A stretch of 44,644 nucleotides of DNA from a virus (lineage: Duplodnaviria > Heunggongvirae > Uroviricota > Caudoviricetes): the IMG/VR virus record IMGVR_UViG_2568526230_000009, one strand, 5' to 3'. Positions 27,292-31,318 of the stretch are shown one piece after another (within the stretch, counting starts at the first letter, position 1; each line of letters begins with the position of its first letter). A program made the translations under genes and the position numbers. Under the pieces are notes generated by a model. It did not search any database. It was not told where the DNA came from and worked only from the letters and a program-made list of their open reading frames with translations.

Positions 27292-27897
27292 ATGCCATCG
27301 GATGACGATTTTAACAGCCGTTTCAAACAGGAAGTAGCACGCAGACTGAAGGATTCCCTCAACCTACACCGTCAGTTAGCAGAAGAGGTTGAGCCGGAGG
27401 ACGATGAAACTCCGGTTCAGTCTCCTGACGAAGCTTCACCTCAGCCAAAGGTTTCGCACGCCCCCAAAAAAACGGCTGTCCGTATTCGCGGAATAGCCAG
27501 AAAAAGAGCTGCCGAAGCTCGCAAAATGGCTGTAGCTGCGTCTAGCAAAAGAATTCCAACTGCTACACCCTCTCAACAAGTCACCCGTACTGAGAGTAAA
27601 ATCTTGACCGAGTTCACATCTGTGAAACAGGTGAATTCACTTGATACCGAGCATGAGCGCAAACAACTCAACAACAAAGATTTTGAAGCAGAAATCGCTC
27701 TAAAAAAACGATACGGGAAATGGTTCCTGATTATCCTTGCTTTCCAACTTCTGATAATGAATGGTGTATTTATTGCCGACGGCGCAGGTAAGCTGGAATT
27801 TGAGGATTTAACACTACAGTTGTACATGGGCGGTACTTTGACAGAGGTATTCGGCCTCGTGCTGGTCGTGACAAAATACCTTTTTAAACGCAAGTAA
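27292..27897 (+). CDS. Membrane protein with charged N-terminal region and two C-terminal TM helices
   Basis: 201 aa, starts 9 nt after ImmA-like stop; 3-prime end is duplicated at 31233-31318. Confidence 0.5.
   Translation: MPSDDDFNSRFKQEVARRLKDSLNLHRQLAEEVEPEDDETPVQSPDEASPQPKVSHAPKKTAVRIRGIARKRAAEARKMAVAASSKRIPTATPSQQVTRTESKILTEFTSVKQVNSLDTEHERKQLNNKDFEAEIALKKRYGKWFLIILAFQLLIMNGVFIADGAGKLEFEDLTLQLYMGGTLTEVFGLVLVVTKYLFKRK
27811..27897 (+). repeat. Direct repeat copy 1 (3-prime end of membrane protein gene)
   Basis: About 92% identical to 31233-31318 by manual alignment. Confidence 0.8.
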
Positions 27898-27921
27898 CTC
27901 TCTCGGTCCAACAGTCTTTCG

Positions 27922-27943
27922 AAGGCCCTGATCAAAGGGCCTT
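27922..27943 (+). terminator. Stem-loop downstream of membrane protein gene
   Basis: AAGGCCCT-GATCAA-AGGGCCTT. Confidence 0.35.
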
Positions 27944-28140
27944 GATAAATTAGCAGTGCGTTGAAAACAGATAGTTATTCCCATCAGTTCCAACGTAATA
28001 CACATCAAAAAAATCACCATTCTTTTGCTCTAACGTCAACACCTACCCTTAAAAAAATAATTCTCCAAGAATGAGAAAGTTATTGTGTGTATTAGATAAG
28101 ATATGAGCTGACACATCTATGGCGTGGAGCCAAATTTAAT

Positions 28141-28172
28141 ATGACAGTCCGCTCTGTGCCATAAGCGGACTG
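28141..28172. other. Perfect 11-bp inverted repeat between convergent genes
   Basis: GACAGTCCGCT-10 nt-AGCGGACTGTC. Confidence 0.5.
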
Positions 28173-28359
28173 TCAATAAACAGATTCACTTGTAAATCTT
28201 GAAGCTATACATATTTACTTTCAATGATAAATAAAAGAACTATCCAAAAATCACTGAGAGCATATTTTAACTAACCCTCCGCTACTATTAACATAAATTT
28301 CACCCAACCATAATTAAATTGATACATATAGCAACTTACCTTGATACGAATCATCTGGG

Positions 28360-29058
28360 TTATATTTTTCCATATTTTTTTCCGTCAAATCGAATCATGC
28401 CAGGATCAAGAAAATTAATTAAATCGATTAACGCGTGCTGTATTCTGATTAGCCTTTCTTTATAAATTCCGATATCTCTTGTCATATTTATCACTTCATT
28501 GTTTAAATCTAAAAAAAATGGCTCATTGATAAAGCAATTTTCCTTTGTGAAACTGCCGTAACCTATGCAATCAAATCCAGTATCTGTTGATATCAGCATC
28601 TTTTCTGCAATAGCTCTCTGCTCTCCTATGAAAAACATAAAATACTGACCAAAGACGTCTGTTTGGATTAATGAGTTAATATTGTTCTGTAATCTAATAA
28701 ACTCCCTCATTTTTTTATTTTTTTCTAGGCTAAGGTATTGAATGTCTATGCGGGCAGCTTCTGTCCATGCAAAAAACTGGGAAAAAAGAAAAACAGTATT
28801 GTTGATAACATAATCTTGTTGGCGCTTATTCCCATTATGATAAAACTCTTCAATGAACCCCAATTCTAATATATTATAAATACGGCTTTGTAAGTCTGAA
28901 GCTGAGCGAATTAACGGTTCAATATAGTACTGATGTTTTCTCCTTACATCCAGTGATTCATTGAGCTTGTTTATTCTATTCTGATTATAAGTAGATATAG
29001 CAATAGAGATTATAGCTATTGCACCACTAATAAAGCTTGAAATTAATGCCGTACCCAT
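28360..29058 (-). CDS. Hypothetical protein with N-terminal TM helix, in low-GC DNA
   Basis: 232 aa; strongly AT-rich codon usage unlike the phage backbone. Confidence 0.5.
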   Translation of the reverse strand: MGTALISSFISGAIAIISIAISTYNQNRINKLNESLDVRRKHQYYIEPLIRSASDLQSRIYNILELGFIEEFYHNGNKRQQDYVINNTVFLFSQFFAWTEAARIDIQYLSLEKNKKMREFIRLQNNINSLIQTDVFGQYFMFFIGEQRAIAEKMLISTDTGFDCIGYGSFTKENCFINEPFFLDLNNEVINMTRDIGIYKERLIRIQHALIDLINFLDPGMIRFDGKKYGKI

Positions 29059-30245
29059 CTAAAAGTCCTTTGATTCTTGCTTGGTTAACAAAATGACATA
29101 ATTTTATTTAATGCCATAACAACTTAACAATATATCATAATATGATTATTATGGTGTAGCTTGTCGCATCTACGCTCCATTACAAACAGATGTAAGATAT
29201 AACCTATATGTTTTAGCCAGCAAATTCGAAAGCATTCAAAGTAGTCTCATCGAACTCTCGAAACCCTATGTCTTCGGGTATAAAATATTTAAATCCATTT
29301 GCATAATATCGACTCATGTTTATTATATTCTCCCCATTCACCATTAAGATTTGACATTATTTTCAACAATCGGTTATTGCAAGATTGAAATATATTTTTA
29401 CTTGACACAATATTCCATGTAGCCCAGCGATTCGACTTACCCCCAACTATACGGACAATCTAAATTAAATCGATGATTTTTTGATACATTCTCCTCTCTC
29501 CATTACTTTATGTTTTTGTTCCCCAAAAATACCTTGCTCTCTAAAAAATAATTGTTCTTTAAGTTCAAAATCGAGATCTACATGAGCGTTAGATACAAAG
29601 CTAATATGTTGAAATGTCTTTCCCCCCCCATAACGGCATTGTTATCTAAACTATGTTACACAAATATAATATTACCCTTTCAACGTAATCCAAGAATAAG
29701 ATTAATGCCATTATATATATCATAAATATGATATTTTGTATATTTTTATCATTTAGCCTTGATTGTACTAGGTGTACTCTCAACGAAGTAGGGAAAGTCT
29801 GTTCCTCGCTCACAGCTGCCCTTCAGTAAGCGAAAAAATGCCTACTCGGTGCCATATACAGCCATTGTTATTAACAGCAGGGAATAATTCAAAACTGAAA
29901 TTAAATATCTACCTTTTACAGTAGAAATAGTTCCTCCAGGACACTATCCATTGCCGGGCACAATCACTCGGGGTATAACGATATAAAATATGTTCATGAT
30001 AGTGCAGGTTCGTATATTAAGTTCAGCAGCGAAAACATGCCTTACAGGTTTCCGGTTTTGGGAGCGTCGTTACAGGATCCTGCGCATACCGTTCCCATCT
30101 GTTGAATTAAAGGTTTCACAGCCTTTGCCGATATCACCTTTTACCTTACCTGTGATGCGTTCAGTGCTCAGCGTTGTTTACTGTAGCTCTCGGGACTGAT
30201 TACAGACCGCGTCTTAAAAACCAATCCTTACTCTAAAGGGAATTC

Positions 30246-31169
30246 ATGAGATTAAAATACTCAGTACTCTTACTCGCCATTGCCCTTACAGGCTGTGATA
30301 ACAAAAAAGATGAGATCGGTTGTTCTTCGGAAATAACCCAGTCAGCTCTCATGGATTTATTAAAAAAATCTGCTTATGAAGGACTCTCTGAACAGGTCGA
30401 TAAATACCCTGATGTCACTAATCAGACCAAACGAAGCACACTGGACAAGATCAAACTAGCCATCTCTGAGATCTCCACAACATCAAGTGACACGGGCAGC
30501 ACAATGAAAACTTGTGAAGGGACCGTGACGATGACTCTATCTGCGAACGAGTACGTCCAGCTTTCAGATGCTTACAGAAAGAATTTTAATCGTAATCTCG
30601 ATAAGCAAATGGAAAGCCTGTTTTTGGAGAACAACGCAAACGCCTTTTCAAAACGTATCACCTACACCGTGCAGGCGACCGACGATCAGAAAAACGTTTT
30701 TGTAAAAACCTCTACTGATAATCCGATATCAGTGGGCGCCGCTTTACTGACATCGCTTTCCATTATCACCCCGATCGTTGAGCAGCAGAAAATCCAGCAG
30801 GCTAAGGATGCCCAACAGAGTCAAATTGAAGCGGAACAACAGGTGCAACTCAGGGCGCAAGAACAGGCTAAGTATGAGGCGGAGAAGCAAATAGAGAGAC
30901 AGGCACAACTTCAGCCGCAAAAAGCTGACAACCTTGATCAGTCCCGAATGGCATTTGCGAATGCCGACTCTGATTTGAGTACCGTCTGGAGCAAGTTAAC
31001 CCCGGCGAAGAAAAAAGATTTGCTGCCTTCTCAGCGTCAGTGGATCAAAACTAAGGATGCTATGTGCGGTAAAGTTTCAATGCAGGGAACAGATGCTGAA
31101 GTCAAGAAAATGGTCGACTGCCAGACGCAAATGACCCTTTCAAGAATCGCTTTCCTCAGAAACCAATAA
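30246..31169 (+). CDS. Lipoprotein with Gln-rich coiled coil and LprI/DUF1311-like C-terminal domain
   Basis: Lipobox LTGC; C-terminus PSQRQWIKTKDAMCGK...VDCQTQMTLSRIAFL. Confidence 0.6.
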   Translation: MRLKYSVLLLAIALTGCDNKKDEIGCSSEITQSALMDLLKKSAYEGLSEQVDKYPDVTNQTKRSTLDKIKLAISEISTTSSDTGSTMKTCEGTVTMTLSANEYVQLSDAYRKNFNRNLDKQMESLFLENNANAFSKRITYTVQATDDQKNVFVKTSTDNPISVGAALLTSLSIITPIVEQQKIQQAKDAQQSQIEAEQQVQLRAQEQAKYEAEKQIERQAQLQPQKADNLDQSRMAFANADSDLSTVWSKLTPAKKKDLLPSQRQWIKTKDAMCGKVSMQGTDAEVKKMVDCQTQMTLSRIAFLRNQ

Positions 31170-31183
31170 CTGAAGTCTCCTTC

Positions 31184-31217
31184 AAGCTGGCGCCAGGTGT
31201 TAACCTGGTGCCAGCTT
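31184..31217 (+). terminator. 15-bp stem-loop downstream of lipoprotein gene
   Basis: AAGCTGGCGCCAGGT-GTTA-ACCTGGTGCCAGCTT; no U-tract, so possibly a stability element. Confidence 0.35.
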
Positions 31218-31232
31218 AGTCATCAAGTGCAT

Positions 31233-31318
31233 ATGTAACTGTTTTATATGGGCGGTACTTTGACAGAGGTATTCGGTCTCGTGCTGGTCGTGGTCAAATA
31301 CCTTTTTAAGCGCAAATA
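31233..31318 (+). repeat. Direct repeat copy 2 (orphan 3-prime gene end)
   Basis: Would encode MGGTLTEVFGLVLVVVKYLFKRK* but lacks a gene body or SD. Confidence 0.8.

Follow-up and report, generated by a model that had tools for sequence, protein, structure and literature searches.

The Z/fun variable region of P2-like phages is a hotspot for morons and defence genes (PMC9122126; bioRxiv 10.1101/2024.10.15.618418), and the mechanism by which the P2 and P4 hotspots exchange their contents has been stated to be unknown (Rousset et al. 2022; PMC9122126). Here we describe a homologous slot in a lambdoid prophage, contained in the 44,644-nucleotide virus record IMGVR_UViG_2568526230_000009 (the window; coordinates given without a locus name refer to it). 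In this slot an 81-nt direct repeat of the 3′ end of TM201, a 201-aa membrane-protein gene, brackets an insert of about 3.4 kb.

Other described systems also offer comparisons. Integrons hold discrete cassettes – defence genes among them – in arrays separated by imperfectly palindromic sites, with crossovers at a fixed point of the site and a tyrosine recombinase gene abutting a primary site at which the cargo varies. In the hyperplastic regions of T4-type phages, accessory open reading frames (ORFs) lie between repeated short stem-loop motifs (PeSL), at which insertions, deletions and swaps have their borders (PMC2839356, PMC4122927). In lambdoid phages relaxed recombination at short diverged homologies is documented, and the conserved end of a gene present as diverged alleles can provide such a homology for module joining and for deletion (PMC3945230, PMC2327257).

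We compared the window with related prophages, P2-like phages and genomic islands (loci designated by L numbers). The explanation that we consider probable has two parts, with the repeat being a relic and deletion substrate, and the cargo between its copies being a hairpin-bounded cassette array.

The nin-region slot and its cassette borders

The window is a lambdoid prophage of Escherichia coli ST131 (sequence type 131); the 5.6 kb around the insert are 100% identical to a chromosomal prophage in EC958, JJ1886 and about 400 other genomes, whose integration site adjoins tRNA-Leu/Cys/Gly and pgsA. The interval is part of the accessory-gene hotspot of the prophage nin region, between the Q-proximal nin genes (DUF1367, DUF1364, Q) and early genes on the minus strand (ORF6N antirepressor, small nin genes, DnaB helicase). 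Related prophages have no fewer than eight distinct gene sets at this position, which supports the modular cargo hotspot proposed by an original prediction made from the letters of the window. That prediction had also described a low-GC insert with genes for a transmembrane protein and an LprI lipoprotein. Both genes are present, encoding a 232-aa membrane protein (28360–29058, minus strand; phrog_5606) and a 307-aa lipoprotein (PF07007, E = 4e-7), and they are all that the insert encodes, with no recombinase gene within. The low GC content (0.30–0.34) is confined to about 28.05–29.85 kb, and the LprI half, at 0.42–0.49, resembles the flanks. PADLOC and NCBIfam returned no strong matches for the window cargo; the 232-aa protein has a weak PADLOC match to RTasTM (E = 2e-5), and LprI has no PADLOC match. 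LprI is 93–100% identical at the protein level in all LprI-bearing relatives.

Alignment with relatives places the left breakpoints of the cargo at 28170±4 for five cargo types and at 27919 for one, and the right breakpoints at 29797–29845 (four types), 31048, 31307 and 31403. This comparison shows that the repeats do not delimit the exchanged cargo. The left border element (LE; Table 1) is 82% identical to P2-EC58 (L001:33–145, E = 1e-27) and is also found in an Stx2c phage. Among the lambdoid relatives the similarity ends within 4 nt of a hairpin, B, and in the P2-like and Stx2c phages too it stops at the foot of this hairpin. The stretch 28088–29816 is 86–87% identical to the Z-region of P2-EC58 (AJ512683), whose GenBank entry shows a ‘lysogenic protein’ between a left and a right inverted repeat; relative to other P2-like phages, the P2 backbone covers only about 1–120 and 1749–1988 of AJ512683. 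In the Stx2c phage (LC727878; L033 3485–3572), the LE/B-like element has compensatory stem changes and lies between DUF551 genes and a gene, near the integrase, for a 517-aa protein of unknown function; the phage may represent a third phage family with the same border.

The same borders recur in 119 P2-like loci. LE is conserved to CTCTGTGCC, followed by two to three hypervariable bases, AGCRGAC-nTT, and then at least 45 unrelated sequences. All 48 distinct P2-like cassettes, which range from 0.5 to 5.9 kb, begin nnAGCRGACnTT and end GTCCGCTyy directly before the constant TCGCTCAAAGCAGACTGTCAG. Hairpin B (GTCCGCT-CTGTGCCAnn-AGCGGAC) and the right-hand hairpin A (GTCCGCT-yyTCGCTCAMAGC-RGAC) share the same 7-bp stem. 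The B stem is paired in 82% of cells compared with 30–44% for slid controls, and shows compensatory changes (GTCTACT/AGTAGAT in Stx phages, GTCCACT/GGTGGGC in Wphi). The window has both Z/fun borders, the left one, ending in hairpin B, at 28088–28175 (matching L001 33–120 and the 119 P2-like loci), and the right one (GTCYGYT-yyTCGCTCAMAGC-RGAC) as a degenerate copy at 29797–29822. What differs is the setting. In P2-like phages LE and hairpin B follow the tail-fibre assembly gene G, and hairpin A precedes the P_F promoter, with the slot lying between G and the sheath gene FI; in this prophage it occupies the nin region, flanked by the TM201 block and the ORF6N/early genes, with no gene G or P_F, and the cassettes form tandem arrays with a composite A–B junction. 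Both slots hold accessory or defence cargo. Inverted repeats at the insert ends were also considered as signs of a transposon, and were rejected because they are the arms of the A and B hairpins.

In the lambdoid relatives, an element of about 70 nt – the junction J, composed of A, CTTCAG, 7–16 nt, and B – separates cargo units, with the consensus GTCCGCT-ccTCGCTCAC-AGCGGAC-CTTCAG-N-GTCCGCT-CTGTGCCAgg-AGCGGAC. J always lies on the plus strand, regardless of the orientation of the cargo genes (L003, L004, L005, L017, L024, L030). The arrays differ in length: L017, with B and three J elements, has four cassettes; there are two J and a half site in each of L005, L019 and L026, two J in L003 and in L030, and B and J in L024. 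A nhmmer J profile built without the window matches only B (28142–28170, E = 6e-5) and J (29797–29869, E = 7e-6) in the 44.6 kb at E < 0.001; one further weak match (10349–10375, E = 0.014) is below the inclusion threshold. Of 5,426 E. coli genomes, 519–976 contain J, in no case with an annotation, and it is also present in other phage contigs of 45–62 kb.

Cassettes as well as borders are common to the two phage groups. At least three lambdoid cassettes have P2 Z/fun counterparts: that of the window encoding the 232-aa protein (L060/L001, 87%), and the first (L131, 95%) and third (L045, 96%) of L017. Among the matches listed for the 119 P2-like loci there are no counterparts for the cargos of L003, L004, L005, L006, L024 and L030, and an SMEK cargo common to lambdoid L024 and P2-like vB_EcoM-12474III was rejected, no similarity having been found. 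Within the P2-like group, L154 corresponds to L131 plus one J and one cassette. Some cargos in relatives match known or candidate defence systems, including PD-T4-3 (E = 6e-138), HEC-08 (1e-173), PDC-M25A/B (9e-157 / 4e-96) and an NsnA-like DUF262 protein (5e-41). A genomic island of E. coli strain 64.1 (L184 11697–17526) has a 5.5-kb operon for a TonB-dependent receptor and an ABC transporter between two J elements, and J-bounded cassettes are therefore not limited to defence genes. A unit of LysR and flavin reductase genes is likewise bounded by J elements in L169.

We consider it well supported that the surrounding hotspot is a hairpin-bounded cassette array. The insert would hold an array of two cassettes, the slot being homologous to the Z/fun moron slot. 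AGCGGAC marks the left end of each cassette and GTCCGCT the right end; each sits between hairpin B on the left and hairpin A on the right, and is separated from its neighbour by an A–spacer–B junction. Exchange is proposed to occur by crossovers inside the hairpin loops.

One recent exchange illustrates this. Strain AVS0747 (L004) carries the ST131 prophage with both flanks 99.7–99.98% identical, and with a 4,271-bp block in place of cassette 1. This block has 99.8% identity with a genomic island that occurs elsewhere in E. coli, ST131 strain SA186 among others. At the left crossover the sequence is window-like through GTCCGCTCTGTGCCA and island-like from GGAGCGGAC, where the island has GCTTTGTGCCA; the shared stretch is TGTGCCA (7 nt), in the loop of B. 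At the right crossover it is island-like through TTCCGCTCCTCGCTCACA and window-like from GCTGCCCTTCAG, sharing the 11 nt CCTCGCTCACA in the loop of A (29804–29814). Island and prophage are not related to each other beyond the hairpins. That only 7 and 11 nt are shared argues against RecA-type homologous recombination and for a site-directed process. Cassette exchange does look site-specific, at the hairpin sites B and J and not at the gene end, where the original prediction had placed a site-specific or homology-driven insertion; its interpretation is supported in part.

The 81-nt repeat as a probable relic and deletion substrate

The two copies of the repeat align without gaps over 81 nt with 72 identities (88.9%), are spaced by 3,422 bp, and are the sole direct-repeat family returned for 26–33 kb (blastn E = 3e-25). 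The left copy consists of the last 26 codons and the stop of the TM201 ORF. The right copy has an in-frame TAA directly upstream (31236–31238) and starts 20 nt past the terminator hairpin of LprI (14-bp stem; fold z = -6.5), and no ORF of at least 40 aa in the ORF list of the window spans it. The original prediction is therefore confirmed in that a gene-end repeat brackets the insert and that no gene body precedes the second copy; its figure of about 92% over about 85 bp is too high, with the five bases upstream of the 81 nt matching at only 2/5.

The gene end is conserved, as had been proposed, and at the level of protein. An alignment of 48 TM201 homologs shows a hypervariable N-terminal half and almost no variation in the last 29 aa (LTLQLYMGGTLTEVFGLVLVVTKYLFKRK), also between genera; the genera with homologs are Klebsiella, Enterobacter, Salmonella, Cronobacter, Serratia, Leclercia, Buttiauxella and Plesiomonas. 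Leclercia and Buttiauxella differ synonymously in 19–21 of the 29 end codons; because synonymous sites are free, the conservation is that of a protein and not of a DNA site, and a repeat core kept across genera as a DNA-level site was rejected. The invariant C-terminus corresponds to a membrane hairpin. A scan of genome contigs for TM201 relatives yielded only three confirmed loci and 24 further unconfirmed stretches, possibly orphan cores.

The nine differences between the copies comprise four synonymous codons, one change of TAA to TAG and three amino-acid changes (Q to L, L to F, T to V). This substitution pattern indicates that the right copy diverged while still coding, and the 11% divergence, with its partly synonymous pattern, that two alleles were brought together rather than one duplicated by an insertion. 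The relic follows LprI in all LprI-bearing relatives (L003–L006, L008–L013, L015, L017–L020, L023, L026, L027, L030), even in the absence of any left copy (L005, L026). It is frameshifted by a 1-nt deletion in the L005 type, and equivalent orphan copies without LprI, in L006_L and L007, are interrupted by a stop. Downstream of the left copy come a hairpin and the remnant of a small gene that is intact in L006 and L007 (Table 1; DNA homology to 28098), and two versions of one locus boundary are therefore stacked.

These lesions bear on whether the right copy could have a function of its own, be it as a membrane micro-peptide of 23 aa with its start at ATG 31248, as a terminator or as a regulatory RNA. 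Its retention at 89–100% identity beside LprI in many prophages, and the synonymous or conservative nature of most of its differences from the left copy, would fit such a role. The peptide lacks a Shine-Dalgarno sequence, and against it stand the deletion in the L005 type and the in-frame stop in the equivalent L006_L/L007 orphan copy, and as RNA the copies fold no better than shuffled sequences (z = +0.15 and -0.25). More generally, fold z-scores for the repeat range from -0.84 to +0.15 and there is no Rfam match in 27.8–31.3 kb, on which grounds a structured RNA or terminator was rejected. We regard a functional right copy as highly improbable.

What the repeats do today is seen in strain GPEC172 (L025). 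It has the same prophage, with flanks 99.8–99.98% identical, in which the ImmA-TM201 gene pair is followed directly by ORF6N, with no insert. Its single copy is a chimera with three left-type variants on the 5′ side and six right-type variants on the 3′ side, and the crossover lies inside the 29-nt identical stretch ATGGGCGGTACTTTGACAGAGGTATTCGG common to both copies. Because the near-identical GPEC172 has one chimeric copy and no insert, we conclude that the repeats recombine homologously, deleting 3,422 bp. L007 likewise has a single copy, chimeric between the two L006 copies; in L006 these lie on either side of IS3, DUF262, another gene and LprI. The crossovers in L025 and L007 are at different places, as expected for homologous recombination. 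The single-copy, insert-free relatives that the original prediction proposed to look for thus exist, and are best read as deletions. The direction is read from the LprI–relic–ORF6N block being older and widespread, and from the dominance of the two-copy form: 432 of 454 genomes carrying the repeat core have it in two places, and GPEC172 is the only collapsed genome among 446 with both flanks. Weighing against this, the direction is inferred and GPEC172 could in principle be ancestral, and the more than 400 two-copy genomes are one clone and therefore not independent observations.

Single-copy relatives, the 29-nt identical block and the high conservation of the gene end could also be accommodated if the 81-bp gene end were itself a recombination target, at which a cassette bearing its own copy had integrated – by Campbell-type recombination or by an att-specific recombinase – and so made the flanking duplication. 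The empty sites in L025 and L007 are both chimeras, there is no recombinase in the insert, and no independent relative has borders that match the repeats as attL and attR would, the cargo breakpoints of relatives failing to match the right copy in particular. Moreover, the right copy is tied to LprI even where the left is absent, the copies are 11% diverged, the core DNA is conserved no more than coding constraint explains, and the collapsed form occurs in one genome of 446. The repeat is thus not supported as a cassette insertion site, and we think this origin improbable. Nor does it resemble the target-site duplication of a transposon or insertion sequence (IS), which would be 2–14 bp and accompanied by terminal inverted repeats and a transposase: it is 81 nt long and 89% identical, there are no inverted repeats at its inner edges, and the insert contains no transposase.

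We therefore hold with high confidence that the repeat itself is an ordinary relic and a deletion substrate. Its copies would be two alleles of the most conserved part of TM201 that met when modules of related prophages were joined out of register, and would now serve only as a substrate for homologous recombination, with a crossover in the 29-nt stretch deleting the DNA between them. Lambdoid relaxed recombination, with the conserved gene end as the short homology, explains the 81-nt repeat; by itself it leaves the nucleotide-precise borders in the hairpin loops unexplained.

A candidate tyrosine recombinase

The block that entered L004 encodes a 200-aa protein (WP_001305361) consisting only of a tyrosine-recombinase catalytic domain (PF00589), with motifs resembling the catalytic residues readable in its sequence. 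It scores under every NCBIfam cutoff (best XerA/XerC at 58/50 bits compared with cutoffs of 220/335), and a search of PDB sequences gave no match. The family is large, being at least 76% identical across orders and present in 773–920 of 5,426 E. coli genomes. Its members keep company with the hairpin sites: the gene is present in L004 and in both randomly picked J loci of the census (L167, L168), contigs fetched only through the protein carry J or B (L169, L184–L187) or half sites (L174/L177), and B, A or J lies close to the gene in each of the recombinase loci retrieved.

A further site abuts the gene. The recombinase stop codon is followed by CAGGGCTG-nnnn-CAGCCCTGTGCCA, a variable nnAGCGGAC, and different cargo. 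The 3′ site, CAGCCCTGTGCCA joined to nnAGCGGAC, is kept in E. coli, in Providencia and in a marine integrative conjugative element (ICE), with the cargo changing right after GTGCCA; L174 and L177 have the recombinase and the left side in common and diverge from the 3′ site onward. By analogy, this site may be likened to an attI-like primary site. The candidate enzyme would thus be a catalytic-domain-only tyrosine recombinase of about 200 aa, proposed from association, whose gene lies within such arrays in the loci examined. We put forward, tentatively, that hairpins A, B and J are recombination sites of an undescribed integron-like system in which this gene abuts the primary site.

The slot works like an integron in outline, yet fails all of the defining features. 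There is no IntI homolog – the window hotspot has no integrase, nor an IntI-type gene with adjacent attI and Pc – no GTTRRRY core or R″-L″/L′-R′ attC architecture in the J consensus, and no Pc promoter logic. Cassette genes are in either orientation and often several per cassette, and the recombinase, of about 200 aa, is carried within an array and has its site on the 3′ side of the gene; the majority of arrays lack a recombinase. The slot also resembles the PeSL cassettes, which differ in being bounded by promoter and terminator motifs of lytic phages, and in being thought to be driven by homologous recombination. Here the elements are temperate, the motif is a double hairpin whose stems are identical, with no promoter recognised, and one exchange shares 7–11 nt; stem-loops are present, and the count of promoter-like sequences is not above chance (13 compared with 12.1±3.6 in shuffles).

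Ordinary phage mosaicism offers a different account of the same borders, in which A and B are terminators or insulators of morons, exchanges including that of L004 are short-homology or illegitimate events of host or phage general recombination, and the recombinase is merely a frequent cargo. Read on the minus strand, hairpin B is scored as a terminator, most arrays are without the recombinase, and relaxed recombination at short diverged homologies has the lambdoid precedents cited above. The means are also at hand, since the 738-aa protein encoded at 39090–41306 is a full-length match to a RecE-like phage exonuclease (phrog_2489) and adjoins a Gp157-family gene, and the prophage therefore encodes its own recombination functions. 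General recombination gives no reason for both L004 crossovers to fall in loops with 7 and 11 nt shared, for 48 unrelated cassettes to keep 7-nt inverted termini while the adjoining two to three loop bases are hypervariable, for J to keep its orientation whatever that of the cargo genes, or for the recombinase gene to keep an adjacent site of the same type across bacterial orders with the cargo changing exactly there. We consider mosaicism of this kind unlikely, though clearly less so than insertion at the gene end.

Several points weigh against the site-specific, integron-like interpretation. Only one recent exchange, L004, has been caught, and the link between recombinase and sites is association plus this natural recombinant, so that its activity is that of a candidate. 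By tblastn there is no recombinase gene in the window, and any action on this prophage would therefore be in trans; nor is there one in any of the approximately 119 P2-like loci sampled. In the window, J and the hairpin upstream of LprI are degenerate, and an A hairpin is missing from the right end of the LprI cassette, which may therefore be a fixed fossil. A and B could be terminators that are conserved through function together with annealing at short homologies. Finally, Nilsson et al. (2004), the source of AJ512683, reportedly already proposed site-specific recombination at P2 variable regions, as the title suggests; keyword searches of the literature found no description of J or of the recombinase, and an earlier description in that paper is possible.

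Flanking genes and implications

Coordinates of the features discussed are collected in Table 1.

Table 1. Features of the slot, its flanks and the recombinase-associated site
Feature	Position	Strand	Basis and remarks
ImmA/IrrE-family metallopeptidase gene	26794..27282	+	Pfam PF06114, E = 8e-18; first gene of a conserved two-gene unit with TM201
TM201, 201-aa membrane-protein gene	27292..27897	+	ORF; hypervariable N-terminal half, nearly invariant C-terminal 29 aa; phrog_5346
Left repeat copy	27816..27896	+	Repeat search, blastn; functional 3′ end of TM201
Hairpin AAGGCCCT-GATCAA-AGGGCCTT between convergent genes	27922..27943		Sequence and fold; conserved in L006 and L007; in conserved block downstream of repeat core
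3′ remnant (residues 35–85) of small gene	27953..28117	-	tblastn, 65% identity to WP_033814620; intact in L006/L007
Left border element LE	28060..28175	+	Common to lambdoid relatives with five cargos; homologous to sequence just after P2-like gene G
Hairpin B, GACAGTCCGCT-CTGTGCCATA-AGCGGACTGTC	28142..28175	+	Terminator-like stem, 13 pairs; array start; crossover in loop after GTGCCA at 28161
Cassette 1, AT-rich	28162..29805		Homolog of P2-EC58 Z/fun cassette; 86–87% over 1.7 kb to AJ512683 and L060
Junction J	29797..29870	+	Degenerate hairpin A, CTTCAG, spacer, degenerate hairpin B′; between cassette 1 and LprI cassette
Cassette 2, LprI	29855..31237	+	LprI-domain lipoprotein gene 30246–31169, conserved 400-nt upstream region, own terminator hairpin 31184–31217
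Right repeat copy	31238..31318	+	Repeat search; truncated non-coding relic of diverged TM201 allele; follows LprI in relatives
ORF6N antirepressor-like gene	31344..32180	-	Pfam PF10543, E = 1e-21; phrog_4792 anti-repressor; conserved right flank of hotspot
Recombinase 3′ site	L004 2937–2984; L168 8655–8703; L169 2806–2850; L174/L177 8604–8650; L179 8604–8650		CAGGGCTG/CAGCCCTG hairpin fused to TGCCA, nnAGCGGAC

On the left flank, the ImmA/IrrE and TM201 genes form a pair kept across genera (window 26794–27897; L031 9482–10384; L032 1892–2790), seen also in Leclercia and Buttiauxella. The peptidase matches the PADLOC capP model (E = 2e-25), and the two may be an uncharacterised sensor-effector pair. 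On the right flank, Rfam matches to isrK (80 bits), C4 antisense RNA (75 bits) and the a1/b1 targets lie directly upstream of the ORF6N gene (32184–32381, minus strand), because of which ORF6N is probably an antirepressor under antisense control of the P1/P7 type.

Type I-E CRISPR spacers from other E. coli genomes match the accessory region at three places (30246–30277, 27848–27879 and 27000–27034). The spacer ATGAGATTAAAATACTCAGTACTCTTACTCGC is the first 32 nt of the LprI ORF, with an ATG protospacer adjacent motif (PAM), and is carried by all 13 genomes sampled, which were drawn from the 90–95% identity band, itself comprising 122 genomes. The left repeat copy is matched, with an AAG PAM, by one spacer of strain 23CRST031, which has four mismatches to the right copy, and the ImmA gene is matched exactly by a 35-nt stretch annotated as CRISPR in strain JX21CE8.

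IS elements are also found in and near the hotspot. An ISL3-family element at 23267–25151 contains genes for a 406-aa transposase (23295–24515) and a DUF1706 passenger (24534–25052); an 8-nt overlap of the flanking alignments suggests an 8-bp target duplication, and the element is in neither L025 nor the EC958 annotation. IS elements strike the hotspot itself in some ST131-type genomes (NZ_CM190134.1, NZ_AP022044.1, NZ_CP051661.1 and L027), with ISEc52 inside the region in one, and IS1 is in the P2-like cassette in two. In L027, IS1 adjoins LprI, and everything up to a truncated baseplate-assembly gene is missing, including the ImmA-TM201 block and the head and lysis genes.

Taken alone, the repeat is an ordinary mosaic relic, yet it explains one-step loss of cargo in ST131 prophages. 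The cassette borders may reach further. If the integron-like reading is true, cassettes with 7-nt inverted termini that hold defence, stress and uptake genes would be shuttled among P2-like phages, lambdoid and Stx prophages, genomic islands, ICEs and plasmids of Gammaproteobacteria, and there would be a mechanism for the filling of phage defence hotspots. Nucleotide-precise borders across unrelated temperate phages and islands, a very recent loop-crossover recombinant, and a candidate recombinase with an adjacent site provide handles on it. If confirmed, the system would make it possible to delimit cassettes, including those with new defence genes, in a systematic way both in E. coli and in other Gammaproteobacteria.

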